Below are positions 4,636-30,899 of a DNA stretch of 64,000 bases, one piece after another; within the stretch, counting starts at the first letter, position 1; the number at the start of each line of letters is the position of its first letter. Position numbers and translations under genes: made by a program. The DNA comes from an uncultured Candidatus Bathyarchaeia archaeon (GTDB lineage: Archaea > Thermoproteota > Bathyarchaeia > TCS64): assembly GCA_964529745.1 (NCBI GenBank), contig CAZGZR010000004.1, positions 551-64,550 of the forward strand, in the 5' to 3' direction. The notes beneath the pieces are model-generated. The model made no database searches. It saw only the letters and a program-made list of their open reading frames with translations, and had not been told where the DNA came from.

Positions 4636-5187
4636 ATGTCTGAAACCAGCTCAACCCTAGAGTACCTACCTCTAGTAGCTTCGGCGCCCCTAAGGAGCAT
4701 AGGAAGTGCCCTGGACCCCTCGCTAGCTCAAGGACTCGAGGACCAGTTAGTGGCTACCGTCGAGCAGAGAGGCCGCAAGTTCAGCAAGCTCGAGGTGCTG
4801 TACAGTCCCCTGGCGCCGCCGGCGTTGGCTTGGAGGTACGAGTGTCAGACGTGCCGGTTCTGGCAGGATCCCAACAAGTGCAGCATAGTCGGGGTCGACG
4901 ATGTGGACACATACGGGCCTCTCTTCGGCGGAGAAGCCGTAGGGCCCCGTCACTGGTGCGCCCTCTGGCTTAGCCCTGAGGCTGTGCCTCCTCTTCATTG
5001 GCTCCACAGCCAGATTGACCCCCGGGTCATAGACAGCTACCGGACCGCCGCCGTGGCGACGGGCAGTGACGGGCTCCCCGCTCGAGGCGCAGGGAGAAGG
5101 ACGGGCACCGCTAAGGAGCCTACGGGTCCCCTGGGGCGGCTATCCGAGGAGGCCCGCCGGATAAGGCACATGCTTTTAGCCAAGTAG
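4636..5187 (+). CDS. HiPIP-like 4-Cys protein with C-terminal GTAKEPTGPLGRLSEE tag
   Basis: CQTCRFW...CSIVG...VGPRHWCALW resembles the HiPIP C-x2-C-xn-C-xn-WC pattern. Confidence 0.55.
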   Translation: MSETSSTLEYLPLVASAPLRSIGSALDPSLAQGLEDQLVATVEQRGRKFSKLEVLYSPLAPPALAWRYECQTCRFWQDPNKCSIVGVDDVDTYGPLFGGEAVGPRHWCALWLSPEAVPPLHWLHSQIDPRVIDSYRTAAVATGSDGLPARGAGRRTGTAKEPTGPLGRLSEEARRIRHMLLAK

Positions 5188-5302
5188 GTCTAGGGTATAC
5201 TGTAGCTCTTCGTGTGCTATGCCCCCATTTAGACTCGAGGAGCTACCTGTCTCCAACTATGTTGAACATATATTTCAACAATAATGATCACAATAGTAAC
5301 CA

Positions 5303-5455
5303 ATGTACACATTAATTCTCATGTAAACTATCGTTTTAATTGTAATATTTGTAATATTTGTCATCTATCGTATACATAAGTTCTAATGTAAATTATCGTT
5401 TTAATTATAAAATTTTGTTACCTATCATACATTGATGTACACCTAAATTCTCACA
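5303..5455. repeat. AT-rich degenerate ~65-bp tandem repeat (2-3 units)
   Basis: ATGTAAAYTATCGTTTTAATTRTAA at 5321 and 5386; ATGTACAC..AATTCTCA at 5303 and 5436. Confidence 0.6.
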
Positions 5456-5756
5456 AATGCGTATTAATATGAATAAATGTGCATCTTAATCGTACAACTA
5501 AATTAGATGTGTTAATCATAAAAATTATATCCTGTCAAGAAAAAGAAGGTATTACAGACTCGCGCCTCCGGCAAGGCCCATCTACGGGTGGGGTTCCTGT
5601 CAAAATAGTCGAGCTAACGCGTGAAGCTGCTGACGAGCAGTGAAGGACGATAGGTGAGTCGGGTGTGCCCCTGCAAATAGTGACGTGGGGACCGAGGGAG
5701 GCCGGACCCGATAAACCGCCTCACACTATATGTTATACATACCTCTTATGTTTCTA

Positions 5757-7016
5757 TTATGCTGGTGGAGTGAAGTGAGTTATTGCGCCGGTTTGTCGGA
5801 GTAACGCGATTGTGTTTCCCGAACCCATCAGCGTCGTTACAACTATTTGTTGTCCTGCATAGTTATAGACTCCTAAATCTAAGCCCCGGTCTTGGGTTGG
5901 AGCTCCTTGATCGTCATATGTATATACGTCGTCGAAGAGCCAGTGTGTCTGGTTCGCGCTTTGGTTGCCAACGGATATGCCGTCATAACCGCCGTTAGAT
6001 TGGTCGTTGTTGAACACGGAGGGACCTATAAGTTTAAGGTACTTTATCCCGTAGGCTAGTAGGATTCCATTCAGCTCGTTTTCATGGTAGCTGCCTCCGA
6101 TTATCTTCAACTCGCTTATGTTCCAGGCGTCGTCTCTGCCTCTTATGTATGCTCCGTTGCTTTGGTTAGAGTATCCCTCACAGTCTTCCATGCAGAGGCG
6201 TCTACCACCCATCTGGGCTCTATACCCGTTTTGAATGTTCTCATAGGCTTTACATCGGATCAGGGTTACATCGGTCCAGTAGTAATCCAGGGCTACGCCT
6301 GTACCGCCTTCGATGTTCCAGCCGTCTTCAGTGTTTTCGTGGGATTCACAGCCGATAAACTCTACGTTATGGATAATGCCGTTGTTGAAGCCCTTTCTAC
6401 CGTTACTCCATGACTCGCAGTTTATTACGCAGACATCTTCACACGGAGTTGCGGGTAGACTTCCCTCAAAATAGATGCCGTCTTGGCCGTTCGAGTAGGT
6501 TCTACAGTTCTCGAGATAGACACCTAACCCCTTGAGGTATATTCCCTTTCCATTGAAATCGTGTGCAGCTACATCTTTTATCGTGATATCTTCTCGTCGG
6601 GTTCCGTCCGTCGCTACGCCACACCACAGGTCTGTATTATAAATAGCTTTATTCCCGTTTAACATGCCCCCTAAAAAGGTAACCTTGTCCCCCGTTATGA
6701 TAAACATGTGGTGATTCCCACCAAGGTCAACCTCCGCGTTATACAGGTTTACGACTACATTATCACCTGTCTCTAGCTGTGCATCTGTGGTAAGTTCTCC
6801 GATTAAGACTACCTCTTCCTGCCATGTTCTCCCTGCGGTAAGCTCGCTTAAGGCCCCCGTCCATGCCGCCGAAAGAGTATCATAGCGTGTCACATCTCCC
6901 GTTATACCATTCTTGGTGTAATAGACAGTCGTTCCATCCTCTTCTTCACTCCAAAGCATACACGATGTAGCTACCTCAGCCACAGCGACCCCTGAGCCTT
7001 GAGGCGGAAACGGCAT
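5757..7016 (-). CDS. Right-handed beta-helix (pectin-lyase-like) protein, probable spike/receptor-binding protein
   Basis: Repeated C.s..N..dG.. coils; N-terminal MPFPPQGS tag. Confidence 0.8.
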   Translation of the reverse strand: MPFPPQGSGVAVAEVATSCMLWSEEEDGTTVYYTKNGITGDVTRYDTLSAAWTGALSELTAGRTWQEEVVLIGELTTDAQLETGDNVVVNLYNAEVDLGGNHHMFIITGDKVTFLGGMLNGNKAIYNTDLWCGVATDGTRREDITIKDVAAHDFNGKGIYLKGLGVYLENCRTYSNGQDGIYFEGSLPATPCEDVCVINCESWSNGRKGFNNGIIHNVEFIGCESHENTEDGWNIEGGTGVALDYYWTDVTLIRCKAYENIQNGYRAQMGGRRLCMEDCEGYSNQSNGAYIRGRDDAWNISELKIIGGSYHENELNGILLAYGIKYLKLIGPSVFNNDQSNGGYDGISVGNQSANQTHWLFDDVYTYDDQGAPTQDRGLDLGVYNYAGQQIVVTTLMGSGNTIALLRQTGAITHFTPPA

Positions 7017-7074
7017 CTAAACACTACTCCAAACAACAAATACAACTTAGCATACTTTAAGTTCACGTTATCTC

Positions 7075-7524
7075 TTAGTCGTACCTCACCACTATCGTTT
7101 CGGCCCAAAGCTGGCGTACCAAGTTCGCAGAGACCCTGATCTTCACATTGTCGCCCGGGTTCAGCGCAGCCCAGAACGCTGGCGCATCTGCCAGAGCGTC
7201 GAAGCATAGCTCCGTGTCTAGGACGCCCGCGATAGCGTTAACGGTGGTCACGGTGTGGGTATTGTAGACCTCACCACAGGCTCCAGCGTAGTAGTTCACG
7301 GTCAGGTTATTGGCTCCCGCGACCCTTGGCCACATCACTATCTCGACGCTGGTGGGGCTCGTCCAGTCGTGGGGCACACGAAAGCTAGCCCAACCCAAGT
7401 TACCACCGTCGATTCTGGCCGGGTGTATCGAGGCGCCGCCGCCATAGTCAAGCTGGGTGATGAACTGTGCGCTGAACTGTCTTGTGGACGCTGGTGCTTC
7501 TGAACCCTGTGGAGGAAAAGGCAT
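7075..7524 (-). CDS. Beta-rich putative virion protein
   Basis: Same MPFPPQGS N-terminus; beta-sandwich-like pattern. Confidence 0.65.
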   Translation of the reverse strand: MPFPPQGSEAPASTRQFSAQFITQLDYGGGASIHPARIDGGNLGWASFRVPHDWTSPTSVEIVMWPRVAGANNLTVNYYAGACGEVYNTHTVTTVNAIAGVLDTELCFDALADAPAFWAALNPGDNVKIRVSANLVRQLWAETIVVRYD

Positions 7525-7537
7525 CTAAAACCTCCTC

Positions 7538-7960
7538 CTAGGAGGGTACACCTACTATCTCAACAACCTTTATGGCTAGAGCCGTGTGAGCCCCCCCATA
7601 CTGAAGATTGATGCTGTCCCCTGTCGTCACCACTATGTCGAAGGCGTAGGCACAGTCCGCCGTCAACGCTACGTTGCCGTTCAAATGCTCCGTAACCGTG
7701 ACCCCTGCCCTCGTCCTAGTTACGCTTAGCACCGCCGCGCCGTTGAACGCTGCGTAGATCCTGAACGTCGTAGGGCTATAAGTGGGTGTAAGGGCTGCGC
7801 CGAAGATATCCGTATTCGCAAGTACCGGCGTGTTGAACACCTCTCCCTTCAGCACGCCCTCTCGGACGGTCCGAAGCGCAGCCGTAAGTACAGTACCAAG
7901 CGAGTCCTCAAGTGCGGCCTCTACGGCTGCCTGTACCTCAGCCTCCGTTATTCCTGTCAT
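7538..7960 (-). CDS. Putative virion protein
   Basis: Ala/Val/Thr-rich, helix then beta domain; structural context. Confidence 0.6.
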   Translation of the reverse strand: MTGITEAEVQAAVEAALEDSLGTVLTAALRTVREGVLKGEVFNTPVLANTDIFGAALTPTYSPTTFRIYAAFNGAAVLSVTRTRAGVTVTEHLNGNVALTADCAYAFDIVVTTGDSINLQYGGAHTALAIKVVEIVGVPS

Positions 7961-7965
7961 CTACT

Positions 7966-8911: not shown

Positions 8912-10366
8912 TTATATTGCTCTAATCCCCCAGACCCGCATCTCGCCTCTTCCATCGATCAGATCCTGTGTTTTCACTATGTTGAAGCCGTTTTCACGTA
9001 TTAGGCGGGTCAACAGGTTCAGGGTGAAGAAGTAGAACTCGCACGGCTCACAGTATTTCCAGTCGGGGCCAAAGTCTCGGTTGTTCTGGGATGCCCCTGT
9101 CTTCAGCAGCAGCAGGCCGCCGGGCTTGAGCAGCTTACGCATTAGGTTTAACTCGTAGCTGGGTCTATGGAAGTGCTCTATAGTCTCCTTGGTCACTATG
9201 GCGTCAAAGTAGCCCTCCGGCCACGGCGCCGTCTCCAGGTACCCTATATGCATCTTTATAGAGAAGTGCTCCGCACCCCACTCGGCGCTCGTCCTGTTTG
9301 GCTCCACACCGTAGACCTCATAGCCTCTCTCAGCTAACCCAGCTGAGTGATACCCCGTAGCGCATCCCACATCTAGAACCCTGCCGCTACGCACATAGGG
9401 TCGTATCTCGTTCAGCAGCAGCTTACCCGCGATCTCGGTCTGGCCGGGAGCTAGCTCCTCTTTTGCGAATACCTTCCTCTCCAGTTTGTCATCGGGTGCG
9501 TATCCCTGCCTGTCTCTGTTCTTCACATAGATCAAGCCGCAGCCGTCGCAGGTGACGAAGGTGGCGCCGCTCTTCTCGAACGCCGGTGTGTACTCCTTGC
9601 TGTGACACACCACACACTCGTCTAAGGGATAGCCGCCGGAGTCCAGCACCGCATCCAGAGTCTTCTTTAAACCCGTCCCCTCGAGGGATAGCTCAGTTTT
9701 CTTTAGGCGTCCTAATATCAAGGGCCACTTTCCCCTTAGGCTCCTCCTGTTTCGGCTGGGCTGAGTGTTCACATTCTGGAGGCTCATTATCTTGGGTACA
9801 TAGATAGCCCTGTACCCCGCCCTCATCATCCAGTAGAATATCTTGAAGTCCCAATAGTAGCCGTGGTCTACCATGTGGTGCGTCTCCCTGAACGCGTCCC
9901 TGTTATACAGCTGCCCGGAGCCTATTATCTGGGCTACGTCGTCCGCTCTCGTTATCTGATTGGTTCTCCTGATATCCACAATGTTATCCTTGACAGCTAA
10001 CACATCTCCGTAGATCACACCTACGTCGGGTGCTGCATACTCCTCGAGCACGCTTCTACGGTCTGACAGCATAAGATCGTCGTCGTCATTCCACGCAACG
10101 AATTTGTTCTCTGCTTCAAGTAGAGCTCTATGCACTGCATGAACTACGTCTATGTGGTGATCCTCTATCTCCGGGGTTACGTCCTGAGTGAAGACTTTTG
10201 CGCCACGGTCAAGCAGCCAGGCCTCCACCGCTTCAAGTCGGTTTCCCAGCTTAACGGGGTCCAGATAGATCCTGATCTCATCAGGGTCCTGCTCCTCTAT
10301 ACTCTTGTATGCCTCCTCCAAAAGACGACCTTCTCGAGATACCAGCATACACGCCGAGAACTTCAT
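8912..10366 (-). CDS. GT2 glycosyltransferase fused to Zn-binding class I SAM methyltransferase
   Basis: WNDDDD (DxD) in N-domain; CVVC..CDGC and VLDVGCATG in C-domain. Confidence 0.8.
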   Translation of the reverse strand: MKFSACMLVSREGRLLEEAYKSIEEQDPDEIRIYLDPVKLGNRLEAVEAWLLDRGAKVFTQDVTPEIEDHHIDVVHAVHRALLEAENKFVAWNDDDDLMLSDRRSVLEEYAAPDVGVIYGDVLAVKDNIVDIRRTNQITRADDVAQIIGSGQLYNRDAFRETHHMVDHGYYWDFKIFYWMMRAGYRAIYVPKIMSLQNVNTQPSRNRRSLRGKWPLILGRLKKTELSLEGTGLKKTLDAVLDSGGYPLDECVVCHSKEYTPAFEKSGATFVTCDGCGLIYVKNRDRQGYAPDDKLERKVFAKEELAPGQTEIAGKLLLNEIRPYVRSGRVLDVGCATGYHSAGLAERGYEVYGVEPNRTSAEWGAEHFSIKMHIGYLETAPWPEGYFDAIVTKETIEHFHRPSYELNLMRKLLKPGGLLLLKTGASQNNRDFGPDWKYCEPCEFYFFTLNLLTRLIRENGFNIVKTQDLIDGRGEMRVWGIRAI

Positions 10367-10368
10367 TT

Positions 10369-11046
10369 CTAGTCCGCCCTGTGCACCGTGATAGTGAAGT
10401 CATGAGGCATGTACGTATGGTCGAGGGTAACCTTCCTGCCTAAAAACCACATACAGTGATCCAGAACCTTAATGGGGTCGTACTGAAAGTCCCTCGAGTT
10501 AACATGGTCCGCATGGGTGGATAACATGTTGAACGCCATAGCCTTTCTGGTCGCCGCCCAGCAGTTATCAAGTATCTGGTACGCCCATCTGTGCTGTTCT
10601 TCGGGGTTCCCTATCTTCTTCGTGAGCACGCCGGACATTATCACGTAGTCGTATTGTCTATCCAGAGCCTCCACCATGTCGTGAACCTTGAAGCTTATCG
10701 GGTTTCTAGAGGGCAATAAGTTAGGGTAATGTTCTTCTGCTTTTTTCACCATTTTGGTGGATATGTCTATTCCTGTGTAGCTCCACGGGTAATCATATTT
10801 GTCCCTCAGATAGTCGATTAGATTACCCAGACCGCAGCCTACATCTAGTATCGTTATGTTTCTAAACAGTCTCCCCCACACGGAACAGATATCGGGTATT
10901 ATCCTGCATAGGACCTCGAACCTTTTCCTCTGACTGCGCCAGCTGCCCCAATCTAAGGCCTGGGGACTGAACCCATATCTCTCAACATTACAATCCCAAT
11001 ACTTCTCAAGGTTCTCTACTTTATTCACTTCCTCTACTTTATCCAC
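10369..11046 (-). CDS. Class I SAM-dependent methyltransferase (sugar-cluster type)
   Basis: ILDVGCGLG, YTGIDIS, C-terminal DHTYMPHDFTI. Confidence 0.85.
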   Translation of the reverse strand: MDKVEEVNKVENLEKYWDCNVERYGFSPQALDWGSWRSQRKRFEVLCRIIPDICSVWGRLFRNITILDVGCGLGNLIDYLRDKYDYPWSYTGIDISTKMVKKAEEHYPNLLPSRNPISFKVHDMVEALDRQYDYVIMSGVLTKKIGNPEEQHRWAYQILDNCWAATRKAMAFNMLSTHADHVNSRDFQYDPIKVLDHCMWFLGRKVTLDHTYMPHDFTITVHRAD

Positions 11047-11726
11047 TCTCTCGCCCCCGGTCCATACCTCATTAAGGGATCCAGTATACTTATGTCTCCA
11101 TAGGGTTCATACGTGCACCGCCATTGTTGGACTTCTACCTCTATCCCTGCCTCCTTGAAGAGCTCCGTGTCCAAGTAATTTTTGTATGCGGTGCCCCCTG
11201 AGAGGTAAGTGTCCGCGTTGTATAATCTGCACAGGTCTACAAGCAGCTGATTACCTCCCTCCGCTAGTCCTTTCCCCGTGAGAGGTTCAACGCGCTTCAC
11301 CATGGATATTACGTCGCTCAGCAAAACCATGTGCGTGTCTATCCCTAAAATCTCCTTTAAGGTATAGATTCCCGTTAAGCTTACGTCCACCAGCATCTCC
11401 CGGTCTAGGCTTAGCTCTGCCGTCTTGTACCCAACGAGGAAAAACGGCTTCTCATGGTAGCACTGTTTTAGTGTTTTCAGGTGCTTATCCATCCATCGCC
11501 CGGGAACCAACCGTACCTGATTGATGGGCTTGAACAGGTCTTCATGGTTGACGGGAATGGTTCGCAGCAGCTTGTCCTCGTTCATCCACAACTCGTAGCG
11601 CTGCTGCCAGCTGCCCTTCTTGAACTGGAGACTATCGAGTATAACAAATACATCTGACTCTATCATGCGATTGAAAAAATGAAGGCAGGGAAAGGGCCTA
11701 GGTTGGTATGCTGCTAATGTCACCAT
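11034..11726 (-). CDS. WbqC-like protein
   Basis: YQP.PFP..FFNRM..SDVFVILD..QF, YLSG, SILD signatures. Confidence 0.85.
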   Translation of the reverse strand: MVTLAAYQPRPFPCLHFFNRMIESDVFVILDSLQFKKGSWQQRYELWMNEDKLLRTIPVNHEDLFKPINQVRLVPGRWMDKHLKTLKQCYHEKPFFLVGYKTAELSLDREMLVDVSLTGIYTLKEILGIDTHMVLLSDVISMVKRVEPLTGKGLAEGGNQLLVDLCRLYNADTYLSGGTAYKNYLDTELFKEAGIEVEVQQWRCTYEPYGDISILDPLMRYGPGAREWIK

Positions 11727-12354
11727 AGAGTTGTACCACCTTGAAGGGTTCAGCCGCGTGATACCCTGCGTGGAGACCCCAATACTCCGCCCTAACCCTT
11801 ATTGCCTCTGGACTCCTTGGGTGCGGCCACGGTCTGCACTCCGTGATGTAGGCCTTCATCGCCTCCACCTTCTTTTCAAGGGTCTCAGCTATATCTACGA
11901 AAAGGTTTGGCTCGAACTCCCCTACTCTCCATACGGTGGACTCGAAGCAGATCAGGTTTATCCTCCTATGCTCCTTTGGTCTCGAGTACACCCGGGCGGT
12001 CTCGTAGATTATCCTGTGATCCTTGTTGAGCTGGGTTGGGCTGTTGGTTATGAGCAGGTTGGGCTCAAGTTCCAGGGCCTCGAACCTTTTGTTTATGTCT
12101 ATCTGGGCGTAGGTGTCAAACCTTTGGTTAGCTAGGTTAAGCCATTTTACATCTGTTACTCCTAGTATAGCGCAGGACGCTACGGCCTGGTCCCTCAGGT
12201 CGTCGTATTTGGGGGCGTGGAGCAGGCCGTCACTGGCGAACACCAGGGTAATCTCTGTCTCTTTCTCTGTGGCCAGCTTCGCTATGTAGCCTCCTGCACC
12301 TATCACCGCGTCGTCCGGGTGGGCGCACAATACCACTACTTTCATCTTTATCAC
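11698..12354 (-). CDS. PIG-L/LmbE family deacetylase
   Basis: AHPDD, DH, KKVEAM..Y and HPRS motifs. Confidence 0.9.
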   Translation of the reverse strand: MIKMKVVVLCAHPDDAVIGAGGYIAKLATEKETEITLVFASDGLLHAPKYDDLRDQAVASCAILGVTDVKWLNLANQRFDTYAQIDINKRFEALELEPNLLITNSPTQLNKDHRIIYETARVYSRPKEHRRINLICFESTVWRVGEFEPNLFVDIAETLEKKVEAMKAYITECRPWPHPRSPEAIRVRAEYWGLHAGYHAAEPFKVVQLYGDISSIPT

Positions 12355-13208
12355 CTTAGGGGGACGTCGGGTAGACGCCCAGCTATCTCCCCGTCTCTAT
12401 AGACTATCTTGAAGGGGAGCTCTTCCAACTGTTCCCTTATCACCGCCGGCAGAACCTTAAGCCCATCAATGAAGCGTTTTTCTAGGGGTACGCAGTGGCG
12501 CCGGCAGTAATCACGATACCATTCGGGGGCTAGTTTCTTCACTTTCTCAAGGGTCAGCCCCTTCTCGGCCTCCACGTACTCGGGTATGGACCCATGGGAC
12601 CCGTCTAGAATCCAGTCCGGTTGACGCATCCGGTACCAGACTCTCCACGCTGGCCTTACTAGGCTCAGGTTCACCCCGAACATTCCCATCATTGTTCTCG
12701 ATTTTAAATCCGGGAAGGTGGGTCTATCCCTCGAGGCCGGTGGATCCGCCTCAATTATCCGTCCCACCTTATGAAACAGCAGCTTGTGAGGGACGTTACA
12801 CGGGGTTCTGTCGAATACATGTGTGTAGTCCCCGCAGAGGTTGATGTCTCCGCAGCGGATCATCCACCGTTTGTTACGGTTCTCTTCAACCAGCCTCTTT
12901 AAAGACTTAGTGCTGTATGGGCCGTCGCTGTTCATGACTAGGTTCGCGTCCTGCATCAATATCCAGGGGTGGCTGCAGAGCTCTATGGCCCTGTAACGAC
13001 TCTCGTACATGAGCAGCCCGCTCTCTATTTTTACTTCTCCCGGAATGTTTAGCTCTGCTAGGGTTTCCTCCGCCTCTTTTACAGTGTTATCCCAACTGCC
13101 GTTATCCAGGACCACCACCTCGTCCGCGAACCCGTCCACACTCTTTAGGGCGAGGGGTATGCTTTCCTCTTCGTTCCAGCTGATCACCGATACGCTGATC
13201 TTAGTCAT
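12351..13208 (-). CDS. GT2 glycosyltransferase
   Basis: ISVSVISWNEE, VVLDNGSWDNT. Confidence 0.85.
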   Translation of the reverse strand: MTKISVSVISWNEEESIPLALKSVDGFADEVVVLDNGSWDNTVKEAEETLAELNIPGEVKIESGLLMYESRYRAIELCSHPWILMQDANLVMNSDGPYSTKSLKRLVEENRNKRWMIRCGDINLCGDYTHVFDRTPCNVPHKLLFHKVGRIIEADPPASRDRPTFPDLKSRTMMGMFGVNLSLVRPAWRVWYRMRQPDWILDGSHGSIPEYVEAEKGLTLEKVKKLAPEWYRDYCRRHCVPLEKRFIDGLKVLPAVIREQLEELPFKIVYRDGEIAGRLPDVPLR

Positions 13209-14008
13209 GTTTATCCAGGTACCCTAGTTTCTTCAGTCGCTCCTGGAGCATCTTCGTCTCACTAGGCGGAGGCATCTCCGTCAGGTCCAGCACCACAGGC
13301 AGGATATCCTTGATGTGAGGCGGTTTCTCGAATCCTAGGGGTATGCTGCTGCTGAGGAAGGAGTACCTGGTATGGTAGCCCCGGGTGCACTCATTGTGTC
13401 CTGGGATAACTACGCGGCCGCTCTTCCGCGTCAGCATACCGTGGTCGCTCATTATCAACAAGACGCCGTCGTCACCCATAGCCACCTTGACCGTCTTGGC
13501 CATGTCAGCGCACCAGACGTAGAGCTTGTCCATCGTCTCCTGGCTCCAGGCGTACATGTGCTGCAGAAAGTCGGTTCCCCAGATATGGATCATGAGGAGC
13601 GGCGGCTTCTTCTTTAGGGCCTCCATGTACAGGCTGCGCCTATGATTCATCTGGATCCAGCACTCCCCAGCGAACGTTCTCATGGCCACGGGCTTACCCA
13701 TCGCCCTAGTCATACGTCCCTCGGGGAACCAATCTATGTTCTCATGGGGTACCTGTATTGCTACGCTGCCGGGAACCAGGTCGAACAGGTTGGGGACCTT
13801 CAGCGCTTTTTTACGGTACTGGTTCCCTGTTACACCGTTCTCTTTAGGCATCTTCCCGGTGGTTATGACGGCCCACAGCTGGGCGGTGGAGGGATCGTTT
13901 ATCCCTATGTTGTTGTCCACCTTCCAGCACTCGGCTTGGGCGAGCTCAGGGATATCCTTCGCTATGCTCCACTCAAGCGCATCGAAATCCGAGGATGCAA
14001 ACGCGCAT
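13201..14008 (-). CDS. Alkaline-phosphatase/sulfatase-superfamily protein with a +1 frameshift at 13985-13987
   Basis: ATG 14008 gives MRVCILGF; +1 shift gives DALEW...; SDHG and C-terminal ERLKKLGYL motifs. Confidence 0.7.
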
Positions 14009-14758
14009 CTACACCATCACCTCCTCTAAGATTATTTCTCCCTGTCTCAATTCATCCCAATGTAGAGACATATGACAATTTCGACATAAACTTGTAAGGT
14101 TTGAGGGGTTATTATTAGTTTTAATGTGATCTATGTGGTGTACATGTAGTTTATACTCTAATTCATCTTGATTTATTCCACATAGTTGACAAGTATAGCT
14201 ATCTCTTTTTCTTATTATCTCTTTAAGTTCTGTACAAAATTCTGCACCGTAAGGCTCAAAGGATATCCCCCCCTGCCAATTAGGGTGATTCTCCCCCGCA
14301 TTTTCTCCCTTCTTAAACTGAGTTTCTCTAAAGTTTGTTATTCCTTCAGGAGACATCCATTCCTCTATTGGTTTTCCTTTTAAGGGTGAAGGTTGACCAA
14401 GATGGGCTTCTGACATGTGGTTAGCATATTCTAGATCTTGCCATAACTCTTTAATTCTCTCTGAGTTCTTCTCTCGGAAGCGTCCTAGGCTTAAGGTTTC
14501 CTCACGTGATCTCGTTGGTATACTGTATCTCTTCATAGCTGTCTGAATCGCCTGTCGTGAACAAGGGTATAGATCGGCTATTTCATTCTGACTTAAGTTG
14601 TCTTCTAAGTATAGTTTAGCTAATTTTTCTCTATCTAAATATAACTTCATCCTTGCCTTGTCATGACATTCATGAGAACAGTATTTTGCTGTGTCTTCTC
14701 GATATGGTCTAACCTCAAAAAGGTTACCACAGTACTCACAAATTAAACTAATAGGTAT
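14009..14758 (-). CDS. HNH homing endonuclease with N-terminal Zn finger and HTH
   Basis: CQLC..VHHID..N..NL..LCRNCH; AT-rich; in-frame CEYC..YCSHEC extension back to ATA 14758. Confidence 0.85.
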   Translation of the reverse strand: MPISLICEYCGNLFEVRPYREDTAKYCSHECHDKARMKLYLDREKLAKLYLEDNLSQNEIADLYPCSRQAIQTAMKRYSIPTRSREETLSLGRFREKNSERIKELWQDLEYANHMSEAHLGQPSPLKGKPIEEWMSPEGITNFRETQFKKGENAGENHPNWQGGISFEPYGAEFCTELKEIIRKRDSYTCQLCGINQDELEYKLHVHHIDHIKTNNNPSNLTSLCRNCHMSLHWDELRQGEIILEEVMV

Positions 14759-14760
14759 GC

Positions 14761-15513
14761 TTAGACCTCCTTATCCAGTATCAGTATCGCCTGCTCCCGG
14801 GGGCTTCGGTGCTCCCCGGGGATCTCCTTCCGGTCTGGCCACAGCAGCAGCCTTCCCTTGAAGGGCGGTGTCAGTTTGCTCGTCGCCTCGTCTATCTCCT
14901 TGAGCATGTACCTGTGGCTTATCAGGCCGTCTTCTCTTATCGTGAACACCGGCATCGTGGGGGGAAGCATAGCCACCACCAGCCTCTTCTCCGTGTGATC
15001 CCACATCTGCTGAAGGGGTTCATAGAGTAAAGGTAGGTGCTGTACTACTTGGAGGCTGAAAACAGTATCGTAGACCCCTGTATGAGGCGGCGCCCACCCC
15101 CTCAGTCCTGATATGTCGAATACGTCCCCTACCTCAAAGCAGGCCTCATTAAGGGGGAAACATTCTCGGGCCAGCTTTATCATGTTCTCACAGTCTAGCC
15201 CCAAGTACTCCGATATGAGGGCAGACCCCATCTTTAGCACCCCAAACAGGTGTCCAACGCCACACCCCATGTCTAGCACTGTCTCCCCGCGTAGATACTG
15301 CACCACCCTCTGTGTTCGATGTCTTTTCCCTCTCTGCCCTATCGTTCTGGGCTTATAATCTGGGGACGGGTTACCCCAGCCCTTCAGACACTCCGCTGCG
15401 TGGTCTGGGTTATGCGTCCACGGCTCCCAGAACCTGTTCTCAGGGTCTAAGGGTCGTCCCTTACTCCCCCACTCTTTGTAGAGTGGGCTGTCCTTTGCGT
15501 TCAGTCTCTTCAT
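14761..15513 (-). CDS. Class I SAM-dependent methyltransferase
   Basis: VLDMGCGVG, YLGLD, VVQHL. Confidence 0.85.
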   Translation of the reverse strand: MKRLNAKDSPLYKEWGSKGRPLDPENRFWEPWTHNPDHAAECLKGWGNPSPDYKPRTIGQRGKRHRTQRVVQYLRGETVLDMGCGVGHLFGVLKMGSALISEYLGLDCENMIKLARECFPLNEACFEVGDVFDISGLRGWAPPHTGVYDTVFSLQVVQHLPLLYEPLQQMWDHTEKRLVVAMLPPTMPVFTIREDGLISHRYMLKEIDEATSKLTPPFKGRLLLWPDRKEIPGEHRSPREQAILILDKEV

Positions 15514-16571
15514 CCTAATCCCTCTATTATCTCGAGCTCCTCTTCAATGACGCCTATATTCGTGCTCCTGTCAAACTTCAGACCCTGCCTTATGGAGTCA
15601 CTACATAGAATCTGATACAGCACGGGGTCCTCCTTCAGTATCTCTAGGATATGCCTCTTGGTCGGCTCGAAGTCCTTGAACACCAGGCCCACGGATCCCA
15701 TCTGCTCCCTGCACGCCCCCGCCTCTCTCGCCACTGGATAGCAGCCGGCGTTCATGCCCTCGTAGAGCATTAGACTCGCGGACTCCGCTGGGCTGGGATG
15801 AAACAGAACTTTGCTGGCTGCCATGAAGCCGGCTACCAGGCGGCGAGGTATGTTCACGTAGTGCTCAAAGTTAAGGGAGTCCGTCAGTTGTTTGACGTCC
15901 ATGGGGTCCTTCACCAGGAAAATCCCTACTACGGTTAGACCCACCTCGCTGAGCTCCGTAGCCTCCTGGAACTCCTGACTCAATACCTTGGCGCCCTCTT
16001 TCTTCCCTCCAAACCAGCTGTGCCGGTACTTCGCTGAAAACACGACGTCTATTTTTCTGTCCTCCCAAGGCATAGCCGCCTCCCGGAAAGGTCGATAGTC
16101 GTGAGGGGCATAGATCACCCGGGGCTCTGGGGCGTTAGGGGGAATGTATGGCGCTAGTATCTTCTTCTGGGTCTCGCTGTTGGTCCATATCCTGGCCACG
16201 GCGTCGGGGTTCCACCTAGTAGGAGGCGCTATGTTCCAGCAAACCACAGGGCATTTCACGTACTCACCTATCCAACTGTAGTCTAGATACGGCACTAGGA
16301 GCATGTCGCTCTTATTCCACTCTTCAAGTGGCATCCGCTGCGGGGTTTGTCTCTGAATCGGGTACCCAAACTCAAAGTTATCCAGGGTCAGGTTGTATGC
16401 AAGGTGGTAATCCAGTATTCTCTCTTTCTGGGATATGTGGCCTCCCAGGAAGTTTCCGTACACCTTGACGTCGTGACCCATGGAGGCGAAGCAGTCGGCG
16501 AACCCGGATATCATGGTCTGCTGGCGTCCGCCGGCGCTGGCTAGGTTATACTCTAATACGCTGATCTTCAT
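15510..16571 (-). CDS. GT4 (GT-B) glycosyltransferase
   Basis: GG..Q N-motif, HPSPAESASLMLYEGMNAG (EX7E). Confidence 0.8.
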   Translation of the reverse strand: MKISVLEYNLASAGGRQQTMISGFADCFASMGHDVKVYGNFLGGHISQKERILDYHLAYNLTLDNFEFGYPIQRQTPQRMPLEEWNKSDMLLVPYLDYSWIGEYVKCPVVCWNIAPPTRWNPDAVARIWTNSETQKKILAPYIPPNAPEPRVIYAPHDYRPFREAAMPWEDRKIDVVFSAKYRHSWFGGKKEGAKVLSQEFQEATELSEVGLTVVGIFLVKDPMDVKQLTDSLNFEHYVNIPRRLVAGFMAASKVLFHPSPAESASLMLYEGMNAGCYPVAREAGACREQMGSVGLVFKDFEPTKRHILEILKEDPVLYQILCSDSIRQGLKFDRSTNIGVIEEELEIIEGLG

Positions 16572-17707
16572 CCTCTCACCTTCACCCCTAGATCCTTAAG
16601 GCGGTCCTTGACGTCGCTCTCCTGCTTAGATAGATAGCTGATCTCATTATAGTAGTCCGTGAACAGTTTTTCGTACCTGTCTAGCGCCTTCTCCATATTG
16701 AAGGTAGTCTCTAGCTCCTTTGTCTGCCGCCACCTGATCGCATTCCACTCGGGCTCGGAGGTTAAGAGTACGCTTAGCATCCTAGCCCAACTCTGGGGGT
16801 CGTCATGGTATGCGTTGAGGGCCGCCTTGAAGGAGTTCCCCCACCCGCACCTACTTACCACGCAGGGTACCCCTGCTGCATAGGCCTGAAGCACGGACTG
16901 AGGGAGGTTCTCGCTGAAACTGGGGAGCGCGAACACCCGGGTCTCCTTGAACAGCAGGTTAAGGTCCTCCATGTAGCCAGTAAACTTGTAGTCTTTACCC
17001 TCCTCGAGGCCTAGAACCTGAAGCATATTATCAAGTATGGGGGAAAGCGTGGGGCCTGCCCCCACTATCGCAAGCTCCGCCTCTGGAACCTTTGATTTAA
17101 CCAGGTTAAACGCCTGTATAAGGGTGATATGGTTTTTAATGGGGTAGACCCGGGCCAGACATGTCACCACCGGATCAGGACTCATGGGCTGCCTCTCTAT
17201 CGCGTCTACGTCCACGATCGTCGGTATCACAGAGCATCTTTCCCCGCCTACCATGCTCTTAACTTGACCAGCGGTGTTTTCGCTCGCCGCTATTATGTGG
17301 TCGACGCCTGCGAGGGCTGACACCACGAAGGGTATTACCTCATGGTATTCCGGTAGGGTAAGCAGCTCTAACAGGTTTATCCCCAGCCTCATGAAGATAG
17401 GGTAGTTGCTCTTAAGCCTCGACAGGTCGCTGTAGGTTGTTATGTTGAAGTTGTGTATCACAAAGATATCGGGGTTCAAGGCCTCCGTTGCCTCCGCCAC
17501 CGATCTCGTCGCATAGTACATAGGCACCGGTGAATCCGTTTTTGCCTCAAGGAACGGCTTCTCTGTGTTTATATCCAGAGGAGGCACATGTAGAAGCATA
17601 ACCTCTATGTCTCTTTCCCTAAGTTTTCTCGCTACAAGCTCGGCCTGAGGGGTAGACCCTGTTCGCCCACCTATCTGAGTGGTCCAAACTACCTTAATTT
17701 TGCTCAT
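16568..17707 (-). CDS. GT4 glycosyltransferase
   Basis: ARVYPIKN, PSFSENLPQSVLQAYAAGVP. Confidence 0.9.
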   Translation of the reverse strand: MSKIKVVWTTQIGGRTGSTPQAELVARKLRERDIEVMLLHVPPLDINTEKPFLEAKTDSPVPMYYATRSVAEATEALNPDIFVIHNFNITTYSDLSRLKSNYPIFMRLGINLLELLTLPEYHEVIPFVVSALAGVDHIIAASENTAGQVKSMVGGERCSVIPTIVDVDAIERQPMSPDPVVTCLARVYPIKNHITLIQAFNLVKSKVPEAELAIVGAGPTLSPILDNMLQVLGLEEGKDYKFTGYMEDLNLLFKETRVFALPSFSENLPQSVLQAYAAGVPCVVSRCGWGNSFKAALNAYHDDPQSWARMLSVLLTSEPEWNAIRWRQTKELETTFNMEKALDRYEKLFTDYYNEISYLSKQESDVKDRLKDLGVKVRG

Positions 17708-21583: not shown

Positions 21584-23062
21584 CTACACCAAGGCGCAAT
21601 ACTTCAGCAGCCCATAACCAAGGACCGCACTCTTCTCAGCGGGTATCTGACTCATTTTCTTCTTTACGTCATCTATGCTGTCTATGTAGAACCGGTCTAG
21701 CGCGTGGGCCGTGATGCCTCCAACGTGGGGGGTGGCCATGCTCGTCCCTATCATCATGTCGTAGCCGTTGGGGAAGTAGTCGTTTATCCCGTCGTACCAG
21801 GGAGTGCAAGCCGCTACGATCTGGCTGTTCTGGTCTCCGCCTATGCCGGCGACGTCCGGCTTCAAGAAGTTGTCCCCGTATTCCTGGTAGTGCTCGTCAA
21901 AGGCGCTGGGATTCTCTTCATACCAGGTTCCTTGAGGCCCACGGCTTGTGTAGCTCGAGGCTCGGGGTTCCTTCCAGTCCATGGCACCCACCGTTAGAAC
22001 GTATGGAGACGCCCCCGGGCTGTTTATGCTCCAGTCTAGTCCGTCGTTGCCGGCAGCCACTATGAAGTTTGTACCGTACTTCTTGTACAGGTTCTCCACG
22101 AGGACGCACTCGGGATCATCCTTAACGGATCCCATCAAGGGACCACCCAGACTCATGTTGACCACCTTGGCGCCCTTCTTGGCGCAATACTCCATGGCCT
22201 TCATGATCTGGAAACTCGTCGCAGGCCCTAGTGCTGAGAACACTTTCACATGAAGGTAACGTGGAGCCGAGGCTACGGGAATAAATTTACCGTATCTGGG
22301 AGAATCTGCAGCACGGCCAAAGGCACAGCTTGAGACCCAGCTGCCGTGCCCCATTGTGTCGAAGGGCGGCTCCACTGTTAGGCTTATAGTGTCGTAGTCA
22401 ACGAAAGGTACCCCCAGGGCCCCGTTGAAGGGGAAAGGAGGCGGAGCGTTTACCCCTGTATCTATCACTGCTACCTTTGTCTCCTCGGAGAGAACATTTT
22501 CGACTGGTGCCTCCATTAGCTGTCTAGTCTGGGTCACCAGCTTCCAGTCTCTTGTAGTGAGCATAGGGGGGAACCCGCCGAATATCTTACTTAGGCTCTC
22601 CTCTGGGCTCTTCAAGATATCCAGCGGCGTCGATAATATGTCTAGAGCTGCTTGAAGGGGTGTAGGTATCTGAGCAGCTGGCTTAAAGTCTATGCCTAGA
22701 CCCCCTAACTCGTTACGCGACAGCTTCGAGAGTACAGGGTCACGGAAGACCGCGATGCGCTTGAATATCTCATCAACCCCCACGGCCATGGGGGATACAC
22801 GTTTCTGCATGGAGACCTGGATTACCCCCGACCATCGAGCTACTTTATCGAAGTCTCCCGGTTCAGGTAGATCACAGAAAACAAAGTCATCCACCACGCC
22901 CTGAACAGAGTATCCCTCGTTTCTCAGCTGGGCCGCCACATTGGGGGCTTCTCCCGGCTGCACATGAACAGTAGCCAGTATTCCCTTCAGGTCTTTACCT
23001 TTTCGCTCGGCCTGCTTGAAGGCCGTCTCCGCCCATGGATTTACTTTTCCATCCATCACCAT
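21584..23062 (-). CDS. Subtilisin-like S8 serine protease with propeptide
   Basis: VIDTG, GHGS, AAGN, GTSMATPH catalytic motifs. Confidence 0.93.
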   Translation of the reverse strand: MVMDGKVNPWAETAFKQAERKGKDLKGILATVHVQPGEAPNVAAQLRNEGYSVQGVVDDFVFCDLPEPGDFDKVARWSGVIQVSMQKRVSPMAVGVDEIFKRIAVFRDPVLSKLSRNELGGLGIDFKPAAQIPTPLQAALDILSTPLDILKSPEESLSKIFGGFPPMLTTRDWKLVTQTRQLMEAPVENVLSEETKVAVIDTGVNAPPPFPFNGALGVPFVDYDTISLTVEPPFDTMGHGSWVSSCAFGRAADSPRYGKFIPVASAPRYLHVKVFSALGPATSFQIMKAMEYCAKKGAKVVNMSLGGPLMGSVKDDPECVLVENLYKKYGTNFIVAAGNDGLDWSINSPGASPYVLTVGAMDWKEPRASSYTSRGPQGTWYEENPSAFDEHYQEYGDNFLKPDVAGIGGDQNSQIVAACTPWYDGINDYFPNGYDMMIGTSMATPHVGGITAHALDRFYIDSIDDVKKKMSQIPAEKSAVLGYGLLKYCALV

Positions 23063-24330: not shown

Positions 24331-24351
24331 AAATTAGAGTATGTCGATAGA

Positions 24352-25852: not shown

Positions 25853-26608
25853 CTACATCATCCTCTCTAACACTTTCTCAAGAATCACCCGACGTATCGA
25901 CTTCCCCCTCTTCCTCAGAATAACCGGGTTCTTCATGGCTTCGAGCACCAGTTCAACGGGAAAGTGGTTTATCAACTTGTTTTTTGCTACATCTAGCCGC
26001 ATCGGTATCTCCATTAGCGTCGGTATCCCCTGGTCCTCAAAGTCGTGATCCTCAGGAAAAATGTTGAATCCATAACCACACCTAGGGCACTCCACTAGGG
26101 TCATGTTCTTGACGAGTCCTAGGATAGGAGTCTCTGATTCCCTGCAGAGCTCTATAACCCGCTCCACATTGGACTTAGCTAAAACGCTGGGAACCGTCAC
26201 GACAAGCACATAGTCCATCAGAGGGATCATCGCCTGAGGCTCATTTCCGGTTCCGGGGGGAAAATCCACTATCAGATACTCTAGCCCGCTCCAGTCTGTT
26301 TCAGTGAAAAGCTGCTTAGCGGCTGCTGATAAGTCGTCACCCGCCCACATCACCGGGTCACCCTCAGAGGCTAATTGACCTAGTGATATGAACTTTAGCC
26401 CATCCTCGTCTGTTGGGATGAACCTGTCATCTTCAACGACAAGGGGTGCTTTACAGAGTATATCGGTCAGGTTAGGGCCTGTCAGGTCGACGTCCAGCAT
26501 ACCTGTACGGTATCCTTTACGCTGGAGGGCCCTTGCTAGGCTGTGAGCTACTGTGGTTTTACCTGTTCCGCCCTTTCCGCTTATGACTCCTATCTTCGTA
26601 AGCGTCAT
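25853..26608 (-). CDS. Mrp/NBP35 (ApbC-like) P-loop ATPase
   Basis: SGKGGTGKTT, DVDLTGP, DFPPGT, NM...CPRC. Confidence 0.85.
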   Translation of the reverse strand: MTLTKIGVISGKGGTGKTTVAHSLARALQRKGYRTGMLDVDLTGPNLTDILCKAPLVVEDDRFIPTDEDGLKFISLGQLASEGDPVMWAGDDLSAAAKQLFTETDWSGLEYLIVDFPPGTGNEPQAMIPLMDYVLVVTVPSVLAKSNVERVIELCRESETPILGLVKNMTLVECPRCGYGFNIFPEDHDFEDQGIPTLMEIPMRLDVAKNKLINHFPVELVLEAMKNPVILRKRGKSIRRVILEKVLERMM

Positions 26609-26651: not shown

Positions 26652-26852
26652 ATGTCCGAAAGAATCTCCGTCAGAGTGACGGTTGAGGAAAAGGAAATGG
26701 CCGATAAGCTAGCCAATTATCTCTACACAAAAGGCAAAATACAGGAAAACAACGTAAGTGAGGCAGTCAGGCTTAGCATACGGTTTCTAACCCAGGAGCT
26801 CCTTAAAAACATCGAGGCCGAACGTCTAGGCGTGTTGCCAAGGAAGATGTAA
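26652..26852 (+). CDS. Ribbon-helix-helix regulator
   Basis: RISVRVT..EK...NVSEAVR. Confidence 0.7.
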   Translation: MSERISVRVTVEEKEMADKLANYLYTKGKIQENNVSEAVRLSIRFLTQELLKNIEAERLGVLPRKM

Positions 26853-26854
26853 CA

Positions 26855-28294: not shown

Positions 28295-28348
28295 CAACCC
28301 CTTTTTTTATACCTAACAACATATCTTTCATAGAGGAGATATCTGGCT

Positions 28349-28591
28349 GTGACCGATAGCGACCTTAATACTCTTCTACGGCAGCTGGTGCCGGCGCCGC
28401 CACCGTATCCACCCGTACCCTTGTTTCTGTTAGAGAACGAGACCGCCCTAAAGGAGATTTTTAAACCGACGTTTAGAAATGACATACTTTTAGACTCGGT
28501 TTCGTGGGGTGTAGGTGTAGGGATAAGCCGGATCATAAGACAGGCACTATCACAGTTGAAGATACCTGGAGCAAAAAGTGTGGAGATCTAG
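28349..28591 (+). CDS. Small PPPYPP protein with GxGxG segment
   Basis: PPPYPPVP...WGVGVG; GGAG RBS. Confidence 0.6.
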   Translation: MTDSDLNTLLRQLVPAPPPYPPVPLFLLENETALKEIFKPTFRNDILLDSVSWGVGVGISRIIRQALSQLKIPGAKSVEI

Positions 28592-28593
28592 AT

Positions 28594-30402
28594 ATGAGTA
28601 GGGAAGAGAGACAGGACCCCTTTGAGGCGATAGCGAAGGGATTGAAGCAGGTTCAAACCGTAGTAACTACTTTTGACCAGGGAATGAAGGTAATAGACGA
28701 CATGGCCAAGAGGATTGATGATCAGTTCGGTGTCCCACAAAATGAACCGGCGCCGCAGCTCCCTAAATCCCCCGAGAGGCCACCCGCTGCGACTAAAGTG
28801 TACGGCGCAGAGGCCAAGACCTACAAAGGACAGACAGACGTAGACTACTGTATCGAATGTCTAACAGGCACAACTAAGCTGTACACAGGTAACTCGACTG
28901 TTAAGATAAGTAGCATACTGGATAAACACACAGTAATCGGTCACACAGGACAAGTTGAGAGTATTGATAATGTGATTAGCAGAGACTACGATGGCCCATT
29001 AGTAGAGTTAAAGTTTGCTTACACTAACATTCCGCTATACATATCCCCGGAACACCCCGCATACATTGTCAGAAACGTTAGAAAGCCTCAGTCTACATGG
29101 AGAGAAGAGGGAATACAAGAAAAAGACTTAGATTGGGTTCCATGTGAAGAGTTAACTGACAGAGATTTCATTGCTTTTCCTAGGATAAGGGAAATTAAAG
29201 ATGTAGAAATAGCCTCTGAGCGACTTATGGAACTGTCAGGTATATATATAGCTGAAGGGAGCCCAGACAAACAAGAAAGGGGTTTGAATGTAATCTTTAG
29301 CTTTGGACGAGATGAAGTCGAGCTAATAGGAGACACCGTAAACCTGATTGAGAATATCTATGGGATTACTCCCTGTGTTACAGACACCGAAACTCAGACT
29401 GCAGTAAGGGTGATTTTTTCTAGTAAATACTATGGCCCATATTTCGAGCAGTTTGGCAAGGGAGCTAAGAATAAAACTATTCCACAGTGGGTACTCTACC
29501 TACCTGAATACAAGCAAGTTAAGTTACTTAGAGGTGCCTTTAGGGGTGATGGATCACCAGGAGAATACTGTTTCAGATATACAACGGTATCAGAACAGCT
29601 AGCTTACAGACTTAGATTACTGTTATTCCGGCTGGGTATACTACATGGCGTATATGAGAGAGAAAAAGATGATTCTGAGATAAATGGCCGTAAGATAAAG
29701 GGCGGAACATATTACGAGATAACAATATCTGGAGACGCCGCTAGACAATTTGCAGAGATAACTGATTTCGAATATGACGGAGGAGAAAAAACAGCCGGTA
29801 ACCATGGATACGTCACGGCGAACTACGTCTTCATACCTATAAAAGAAGCGAGAAAAATTCACTTTAAGGGGAAACTCTATAACCTACATGTACCTGGCTC
29901 CGAGTCTTATCTGACTATTCACGGTGCTCTGCATAACTGTGCGGTCAAGCACAGCCAGACGGCCAAGGTTCTCATGAGAGAGGCACTACAGAGAGCAGAG
30001 TCAAACGGTGTGGATACAGAGGGTGTGAAAGAGAAGGTCCGGGGCGTCGTTGAGGAGCTGTCCGGCCTGGAAGACGACACAACCACTGTATCCAGTCAGC
30101 AGGTGATAATCCTTAACGGCGCCTCCAGAGACCTACGTAAGTTCATCTATGAGTCCAGGGCTGAGATTGGGGGAGCGAAAATAAGCACTCTCCGAGAGAT
30201 CAAGACCATGATAGATCAGCTGGTGGAGGCCACTTACAAGGTTAGAGAGACAGAGGAGTGTATAGGCTGCACCACTGAGCAGATATGCGGCGGGATAGCT
30301 GAGTGCGTGGATTTTGTCGATAAGAATGTGGAGGGTATTAGGGACCCGGCGGTGATACGTAAGGTATTAGCTGAAGCCCGGCGAAAGTACGGCAGAGAAT
30401 AA
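28594..30402 (+). CDS. Helical Cys-motif hypothetical protein interrupted by an intein (mature ~242 aa)
   Basis: Start ATG 28594; extein junction restores YCIECAVKH. Confidence 0.8.
   Translation: MSREERQDPFEAIAKGLKQVQTVVTTFDQGMKVIDDMAKRIDDQFGVPQNEPAPQLPKSPERPPAATKVYGAEAKTYKGQTDVDYCIECLTGTTKLYTGNSTVKISSILDKHTVIGHTGQVESIDNVISRDYDGPLVELKFAYTNIPLYISPEHPAYIVRNVRKPQSTWREEGIQEKDLDWVPCEELTDRDFIAFPRIREIKDVEIASERLMELSGIYIAEGSPDKQERGLNVIFSFGRDEVELIGDTVNLIENIYGITPCVTDTETQTAVRVIFSSKYYGPYFEQFGKGAKNKTIPQWVLYLPEYKQVKLLRGAFRGDGSPGEYCFRYTTVSEQLAYRLRLLLFRLGILHGVYEREKDDSEINGRKIKGGTYYEITISGDAARQFAEITDFEYDGGEKTAGNHGYVTANYVFIPIKEARKIHFKGKLYNLHVPGSESYLTIHGALHNCAVKHSQTAKVLMREALQRAESNGVDTEGVKEKVRGVVEELSGLEDDTTTVSSQQVIILNGASRDLRKFIYESRAEIGGAKISTLREIKTMIDQLVEATYKVRETEECIGCTTEQICGGIAECVDFVDKNVEGIRDPAVIRKVLAEARRKYGRE
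28858..29937 (+). mobile_element. Intein with LAGLIDADG homing endonuclease (360 aa)
   Basis: Starts CLTG, SPEHP block B, LSGIYIAEGS and LLRGAFRGDGS, ends LYNL...LHN followed by Cys. Confidence 0.93.
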
Positions 30403-30443
30403 AGATTTATCGAAGCCCCGTCCCCTTCTTTCTTAGAGCAGCT

Positions 30444-30899
30444 ATGAGTGAGAAAAAGGGGTACGGATACGGTAACCCTGACGAAGAGGAGACCCGAAGG
30501 AAGGCGCTGAAGGCTACAGAGATTTTCCTGGAGGAGAAATTAGGTTCCAGGGTGATAACCGTCGACTTGGATGGTGATCTACCGGTTAGGAGTACAGGAC
30601 GTATGTTTGGAACCGCAAAAGAGCCTACGGGCCCCCTTGGCCGCCTCTCCGAGGAAGAAAGAAAGCTGAGACATGGGGGATCCATGGTGCTGATAGCAGA
30701 CCCCGAGGTAACCGAGATAGTCCGGGAGAATCCTAAGCTCTCATTTGCGGAGAGAATACAGGCTATCAAAGAGACACCGTGGGCCCAGAATTGGGCGAAG
30801 GGTATGTGTAACCTCGTTAGACCTGATATCTCGCCTGAAGAAAAGGAAACGTGCGTGACCGACCTATCCGAATACCTGGCTAGAAAAGCGGTTACCTAG
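30444..30899 (+). CDS. Hypothetical protein with GTAKEPTGPLGRLSEE tag
   Basis: 16-aa identity with the 4636..5187 product. Confidence 0.7.
   Translation: MSEKKGYGYGNPDEEETRRKALKATEIFLEEKLGSRVITVDLDGDLPVRSTGRMFGTAKEPTGPLGRLSEEERKLRHGGSMVLIADPEVTEIVRENPKLSFAERIQAIKETPWAQNWAKGMCNLVRPDISPEEKETCVTDLSEYLARKAVT

Follow-up and report, generated by a model that had tools for sequence, protein, structure and literature searches.

The window analysed here is a 64,000-nucleotide (nt) stretch comprising almost all of contig C4 (64,740 nt; CAZGZR010000004.1) of an uncultured Candidatus Bathyarchaeia archaeon, and two of its open reading frames (ORFs), called A and B, share a short peptide. Both encode the same 16 residues, GTAKEPTGPLGRLSEE, at the positions given in Table 1, exactly as a sequence-only reading of the window had noted, and the codon count reported with it was also confirmed (9/16 codons differ between the copies, and 9/9 of these differences are synonymous). 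By the Nei-Gojobori method, the 16-codon core has 9 synonymous differences over 13.8 synonymous sites (proportion of synonymous differences, pS, 0.65, near saturation) and 0 non-synonymous differences over 34.2 sites (pN 0), in agreement with the claim that the conservation is at the level of the protein and not of the DNA.

The similarity of A and B reaches beyond the core, with 74% identity over 35 amino acids (aa) by BLASTP and an expectation value (E) of 1e-11. This is the strongest inter-ORF similarity among the 267 window ORFs of at least 50 aa, and the three further pairs found in the same comparison are ordinary paralogous domains. BLASTP aligns only a 31-residue module, described below, which includes the core, and the two host proteins are otherwise unrelated, as had been stated. 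Over the whole module, pN is 0.19 and pS 0.78 between A and B, the non-synonymous changes being those of the flanks. A third copy was not found in the 2.83-Mb, 161-contig genome by protein search, six-frame regular expression or family profile hidden Markov model (HMM). The 16 shared residues are the core of a longer module, of 31 residues, that two unrelated proteins have each acquired.

Table 1. Coordinates in the window of ORFs A and B, their modules and cores, and two further genes referred to in the text
Feature	Position (nt)	Strand	Remarks
ORF A, 183 aa	4636..5187	+	body with four conserved Cys, weakly HiPIP-like; module C-terminal
31-residue module in A, aa 148-178	5077..5169	+	HMM 57.0 bits; 10/10 family-invariant residues kept
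Core, 16 identical residues, copy 1	5104..5151	+	in ORF A
S8 subtilase	21584..23062	-	no evident signal peptide; Pfam PF00082 E 6e-28
Intein-bearing ORF, 632 aa	28504..30402	+	42 nt upstream of B, same strand
ORF B, 151 aa	30444..30899	+	orphan without known family; module internal
31-residue module in B, aa 47-77	30582..30674	+	HMM 52.2 bits; 10/10 family-invariant residues kept
Core, 16 identical residues, copy 2	30609..30656	+	in ORF B

The module and its small-protein family

A profile of the two window copies was searched against 1.84 billion representative proteins (E up to 0.001) and returned 7 matches, 5 of which were judged true. Four of these are free-standing proteins 60-73 aa long, and the fifth is a Cys-rich protein of 238 aa in which the motif is embedded; P0016, a 4449-aa Gly/Ser/Thr repeat protein, and P0021, matched only on the flank, were set aside as unrelated to the family. 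A word-index search with an alignment of the true matches gave, at E up to 0.01, 59 clusters whose members are almost all 55-75 aa long, a count in which embedded copies may be under-represented, the search having covered proteins of 24-128 aa only. The exhaustive profile search covered one representative per 50% cluster and may under-count embedded copies in the same manner.

The free-standing proteins have a common layout: the motif K-x-Q-R-Q-R-x-x-D-P at the N-terminus, an acidic linker whose length varies, and then the module, whose first P is preceded by L (L-P-x-R-G-T-G-R...). The consensus of the module is P-x-R-G-T-G-R-x-T-G-T-A-K-x-P-T-G-P-x-x-R-L-T-E-E-E-R-K-K-R-H. Over 60 sequences, 10 positions are invariant (P, G, R, A, P, G, L, R, R and H) and 13 more are conserved at 90% or above, and all ten invariant columns remain unchanged when A or B, each aligned separately, joins 53 free-standing proteins. 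In the reverse test, which does not depend on the window sequences, an HMM built from 60 free-standing proteins only was run against the 60,746 six-frame ORFs of the genome and found A (E 5.3e-15) and B (E 1.6e-13) with the scores of Table 1, the next match having an E of 0.66. The 16-mer is therefore the middle of the 31-residue module. Because the conserved unit is of this length and homologous to a whole family of small proteins, it is better described as a mini-domain than as the bare 16-residue tag of the sequence-only reading, of which the identity was real and the extent too short.

About 12 of the 16 core residues are invariant or consensus across the entire family. The lineage-specific states common to A and B are only E14, L19, G20 and S23, which in the 62 free-standing modules occur in 7, 0, 25 and 0 cases, respectively. 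No free-standing member of 55-75 aa with the N-terminal Q-x-Q-R motif was found in the genome, where A and B carry the module within larger proteins. The free-standing proteins have an isoelectric point of 9.5-11 and the window modules a net charge of +3 to +5; the module has no aromatic residue and very few hydrophobic ones.

No model matching the module was found in Pfam or NCBIfam at E up to 10 or in PHROGs at E up to 1, the ESM Atlas gave no usable match for the family, and a literature text search with the motif strings gave none either; the family is so far undescribed and without annotation in any library searched. Its members come from marine-sediment, subsurface and 'viral metagenome' assemblies (two carry the last label in UniRef), and some of them sit on contigs of 44-61 kb. 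P0084, P0038 and P0037 are encoded by contigs of 61, 51 and 44 kb, respectively, and P0035, P0053 and P0083 by contigs of about 19 kb each. The exact back-translated tag pattern has no copy in 185,579 species-representative genomes or IMG/VR, and family-level patterns had no match in species-representative genome contigs or IMG/VR. The single match of the tag pattern in a Joint Genome Institute metagenome (L005) was judged to be due to chance, as its reading frame is rich in Arg, the contig has a high GC content and longer ORFs overlap the match. No real relative of A, B or the module alignment was found in IMG/VR, where L006 is a chance match to the alignment, and tblastn against GenBank phages and PLSDB plasmids gave no module match. 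The module profile was found in 0/400 other genomes sampled from the phylum, and in its own genome only in A and B. In IMG/VR, five loci whose MCM genes are distantly related (31-35% identity) have neither the module nor a homologue of A or B. The motif search of contig and viral databases that the sequence-only reading had proposed thus gave both copies in the contig, and those alone, and none in IMG/VR or GenBank phages. Given the sources of its members and its absence from the searches of binned genomes, phages and plasmids, the family looks confined to unbinned mobile elements.

Five architectures of the module were found: free-standing, tandem, free-standing with a C-terminal CX9C extension (P0020, P0079 and P0085), embedded after CxxC in a Cys-rich protein (P0017 and P0086), and carried within A or B. 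The only tandem example named, P0034, is a protein of 103 aa from a 767-nt ENA contig, and its two complete modules differ at variable positions (SKD in one and PSG in the other). Aligned by hhalign with the B family, P0017/P0086 match in the module alone (47 columns, probability 96.7%), and homology of B to P0017 beyond the module was rejected on that result. The occurrence of the module in several architectures supports its portability across unrelated proteins, which had been suggested from the two window copies; it is seen free-standing, in tandem, C-terminal, internal and within a third, unrelated Cys-rich protein.

The module of A is identical to that of B at 23/31 positions, and each of them is identical to its own best free-standing relative at 24/31. 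In a FastTree tree of 69 modules, which gives weak but consistent evidence as it has only 31 columns and no root, the six embedded modules (A, P0005, B, P0002, P0017 and P0086) fall in one group with a Shimodaira-Hasegawa (SH)-like support of 0.93, within which A and P0005 stand beside the pairs B with P0002 and P0017 with P0086. In the A family, 17 of the 20 aligned members (about 141 aa) stop before the module, which is complete in A and P0005, and in the B family it is complete in P0002, which is 83% identical to B.

The AlphaFold2 model of a free-standing member, computed with 60 sequences, has a mean predicted local distance difference test score (pLDDT) of 73, a predicted template modelling score of 0.28 and no tertiary fold. 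Its sole segment near pLDDT 91 is a helix at residues 51-62, which covers T-E-E-E-R-K-K-R-H-K. The upstream half of the module is a run of Gly, Thr, Arg, Lys and Pro (P-x-RGTGR-x-TGTAK-x-PTGP), followed by the short helix RLTEEERKKRH. Along the helix, the column entropies taken in pairs are 0 and 0.12, 0.78 and 0.67, 0.35 and 0, 0.75 and 1.02, and 0 and 0, so that positions 22/23, 26/27 and 30/31 are conserved and 24/25 and 28/29 variable; this period of about four residues indicates that one face of the helix is conserved. As modelled, the module is without an independent globular fold, and its predicted features are those of a peptide that would be disordered alone and fold on a partner.

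The body of A scores 13.3 bits with the HiPIP model (Pfam PF01355; E 0.11), below the curated cut-off of 22, and the earlier description of A as 'HiPIP-like' rests on this sub-threshold match. Its AlphaFold2 model has a mean pLDDT of 43, too low to be of use in a fold search, and a PDB sequence search with A gave no match at E up to 10. A is possibly an iron-sulfur protein. About 30 nt upstream of its ATG, at 4602-4608, lies a TAATATA that by eye fits an archaeal TATA box and a leaderless transcript. Downstream of A there is a 570-nt AT-rich gap containing two 46-nt direct repeats (5305-5350 and 5370-5415), 85% identical and with a 65-nt spacing, which could be a regulatory or origin-like element.

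Possible functions of the module

Here it is tentatively proposed, with a probability of roughly 45%, that the module is a shared docking peptide that folds on a conserved partner common to A and B. The proposal builds on the homology of the copies, their portability, the constraint at the protein level and the lack of a globular fold, from which we infer the docking and the partner. Disordered alone, the module would fold on binding, presenting the conserved helix face (L22, T/S23, E26, R27, R30 and H31) together with the extended Gly/Thr/Lys/Arg segment. The element, lacking a free-standing copy, would instead have the module built into the C-terminus of A and the middle of B, and the same module on both proteins would tie them to one conserved partner. 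The first candidate for this partner would be a polyanion (DNA or RNA), and the second an acidic groove on a conserved protein. Nucleic acid is favoured because the module has few hydrophobic residues, a net positive charge and invariant Gly, Arg, Lys, Thr and His, the residue types that usually contact phosphate backbones.

Among the closest known systems are the basic Gly/Arg-rich nucleic-acid-binding peptides, such as the AT-hook, the 'Q/RGR' motif of H-NS/Lsr2 and ribosomal-protein tails, which share with the module invariant Gly, Arg, Lys, Thr and Pro residues, the lack of an own fold, extreme conservation and a net positive charge. Unlike the AT-hook, the module has no R-G-R-P core, and when five family members and the two window modules were run through hmmscan, none matched the AT-hook model (Pfam PF02178) up to an E of 10. 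The PIP box (Qxx[LIVM]xx[FY][FY]), a short linear motif of archaeal replication partners, likewise brings diverse proteins to a single hub, and PCNA, MCM and a clamp-loader-like ATPase are encoded by the element itself; however, the module contains neither a Gln-x-x-hydrophobic-x-x-aromatic-aromatic pattern nor any aromatic residue. In a PDB search, the family profile came closest to the C-terminal tails of the eukaryotic ribosomal protein eS27, at E 0.48; homology was rejected for lack of support, hhalign giving a probability of 0.28% against the host S27e. A pattern defined post hoc, EPTG...[KR][IL]S, has three occurrences in the six-frame ORFs of the genome, in A (5116-5145), in B (30621-30650) and at the C-terminus of the host S27e (contig C3, L007:1465-1665), which is considered a coincidence.

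Several observations weigh against docking on a conserved partner. Searching Pfam with hmmscan at E up to 10 gave nothing relevant among nucleic-acid-binding families, and no partner was identified. When this element is compared with its 83%-identical relative, conservation of the module does not exceed that of the remainder of A or B, with 27/31 residues identical in the module of B and 99/120 in the rest of the protein, and 26/31 and 125/152, respectively, for A and its counterpart in the same relative element. That counterpart, P0005, has changed two family-conserved residues (G10R and R21W), and each window copy departs from the family at 2-3 positions that are almost invariant. Deletions have removed part of the module from the next homologues of A and B: in the B family, P0003 (58% identical) retains a degenerate first half, with 12 residues gone from the second, and in the A family, P0006 (67% identical) lacks 19 residues of the module. 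These deletions, together with G10R and R21W, show that relaxation or loss of the fused copies is possible. Selection is less even than the 'strong purifying selection' of the sequence-only reading suggests, being strong for the family as a whole and for the core of the two window copies, yet not uniform.

Some of the same observations favour the main rival explanation, in which a small-protein gene was fused into A and B and the fusion is now a decaying relic, its likeness due to descent and residual constraint and its common function gone. Loss from the second half of the module in P0003 and P0006, the two substitutions in P0005 and the unexceptional conservation relative to the rest of A or B would all be expected of such a relic, and the grouping of the six embedded modules in the tree fits descent from one fused lineage. 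It is harder to reconcile with the absence of non-synonymous changes in a 16-codon core whose synonymous sites are near saturation, with the retention of all ten family-invariant residues by both window copies, and with the identity of B and P0002 at 16/16 core residues. Decay of this kind is regarded as unlikely.

The sequence-only reading had thought of a virion cargo-loading peptide. In this explanation the free-standing protein would be an internal or scaffold protein, and the module would carry A and B into particles by loading them as cargo or binding the scaffold. A short portable peptide on unrelated proteins would suit that role, as would the Cys-rich and possibly iron-sulfur nature of A, with its module C-terminal as in encapsulin cargo; two family members labelled 'viral metagenome' and a beta-helix protein with a weak likeness to tail fibres (PHROG E 2.9e-6) point in the same direction. 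However, the family was not found in IMG/VR or GenBank phages, and profile scans of the window ORFs at the sequence level with Pfam (63 ORFs), PHROGs (44 ORFs) and NCBIfam (36 ORFs) recognised no capsid, portal, convincing terminase or encapsulin shell, and no HK97-fold shell gene beside A or B. A PHROG terminase match (E 1.2e-5, about 100 aa) falls in a protein that NCBIfam reads as coiled-coil and Rad50/SMC-like. With no shell or head genes recognised, cargo loading is so far without a container, and it is held to be distinctly unlikely.

Comparison with the known targeting peptides leads in the same direction. Encapsulin cargo targeting peptides, in the passages of PMC7925596 that deal with them, have the consensus DGSLGIGSLKG, measure about 10 residues and are recognised at the C-terminus by a GSL motif or by a hydrophobic-Gly-hydrophobic anchor with a basic residue after it. 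So described, they resemble the module as short conserved peptides on otherwise unrelated proteins, typically C-terminal on iron-related cargo and unstructured until bound. They differ from it in that the module has 31 residues, lacks both the GSL motif and, at the family level, an LGI-type hydrophobic-Gly-hydrophobic anchor, lies within the chain in B and occurs as a protein of its own as well. At module position 19, 57/62 free-standing modules have K, G, D or E and the remaining 5 have S or Q, so that none has a hydrophobic residue there. The capsid targeting sequence of phage T4, as presented in the relevant part of PMC9026906, consists of the N-terminal 10 residues, which the prohead protease takes off. 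It, too, is portable and directs different proteins to a single destination, and the element here also encodes a protease; in contrast, the module is three times longer and is C-terminal in A and internal in B (Table 1), and no head genes were found in the window.

Homotypic docking, in which modules would pair with each other to give dimers of the free-standing proteins and an A-B heterodimer, would account for the presence of exactly two copies in the element and for the tandem duplicate within the single chain of P0034. The states L19 and S23, common to A and B and absent from the 62 free-standing modules, would also be expected of a co-evolving interface. However, with very few hydrophobic residues and a net positive charge the module is poorly suited to self-association, the variable positions are not the same in both modules of P0034, and most elements seemingly have a single small protein, which makes pairing of this sort an improbable explanation.

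Still less probable is the suggestion that the module is a recognition or cleavage site for one of the element's proteases, in which the invariant R-x-x-R-H would be cut by the intracellular S8 subtilase or by a putative Cys protease near A. R-x-x-R-H resembles the minimal site of proprotein convertases, R27, R30 and H31 are invariant in 62/62 modules, and the S8 protease of the element has no evident signal peptide. Of the two encoded proteases that the sequence-only reading had named, this S8 enzyme is real (Table 1); the 'clan-CD' Cys protease at 3244-4086 has no family match in Pfam, PHROGs or NCBIfam. R-x-x-R-H lies within the only confidently predicted helix, where conservation follows the helix face and not a linear P4-P1 order, and cleavage there would release only 5-6 residues from A and the free-standing proteins. 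Twenty further conserved residues upstream exceed what protease subsites need, so that cleavage would explain few of the 23 conserved positions. The slimmest chance is given to a covalent modification site, at the invariant Lys13 or at Thr residues for example, with one enzyme of the element as its writer. K13 and several Thr are indeed invariant, and the element encodes many methyltransferases and glycosyltransferases as well as a radical SAM enzyme; however, none of the known modification motifs was recognised in the module, the transferase genes together look like a surface-glycan locus, and an invariant stretch of 31 residues is long for such a site.

A wider form of the docking proposal, in which the module would be the core of a new class of small proteins of mobile elements that dock onto a universal machine (chromatin or DNA, ribosome, or replisome) and would have been moved onto two effectors, is viewed as somewhat unlikely. 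If true, the module would be a plug-in label moved from its own gene onto two effectors, of which A would be a probable iron-sulfur protein, and delivering both to one conserved machine. Portable address peptides are known in encapsulins, bacterial microcompartments and a few phage heads; to our knowledge, they are hardly known in archaeal mobile elements. New here is a sharply defined 31-residue unit with ten invariant residues, found in at least 59 protein clusters and fused to at least three unrelated proteins, and this combination makes its function testable with a synthetic peptide. An address label would provide a ready-made tag for archaeal systems, and a decaying fusion would document the absorption of a free-standing micro-protein into larger genes.

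The element and the neighbouring genes

Contig C4 has no terminal overlap and no transfer RNA gene, and its guanine-plus-cytosine content is 51%, against 57% for the genome. The window encodes replication and transcription proteins (MCM, a TFIIB homologue, PCNA fused to zinc ribbons and a clamp-loader-like ATPase), as well as an integrase fragment, two DNA methylases, PAPS-reductase-like proteins, the S8 subtilase and the beta-helix protein. The contig is read as an archaeal mobile element, plasmid-like or a virus, that was binned with the genome.

Upstream of B, the intein-bearing ORF contains a 360-aa LAGLIDADG intein (C-L-T-G...H-N/C, the slash marking the junction; nt 28858-29937), which splits a CxxC/xxKH motif. 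No Pfam or PHROG family matched its exteins, and a CxxC..KH likeness to the N-terminus of P0017 is a weak lead (BLASTP E 0.027 over 19 aa only). Given the 42-nt gap between them, this ORF and B are probably co-transcribed. No homologue of B was found in 400 other genomes sampled from the class.

An iron-sulfur theme runs through the window, with an Mrp/ApbC-type carrier (25853-26608; CPRC motif, NCBIfam E 1.5e-52), two CxxCxxCC proteins (47967-48797 and 191-625), a radical-SAM protein (39979-40956) and A itself. The stretch 8912-17707 holds nine consecutive minus-strand genes, which include glycosyltransferases, methyltransferases, a WbqC-like protein, a PIG-L deacetylase and a phosphodiesterase-like protein; this transferase cluster is broken by an HNH endonuclease gene (14009-14650), and the gene of the beta-helix protein (5757-7016), with its weak tail-fibre likeness, stands beside it. 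The PCNA, at 58664-60148, matches its NCBIfam model over aa 11-250 (E 2.4e-37) and continues in an extension of about 240 residues with two zinc-ribbon-like motifs.

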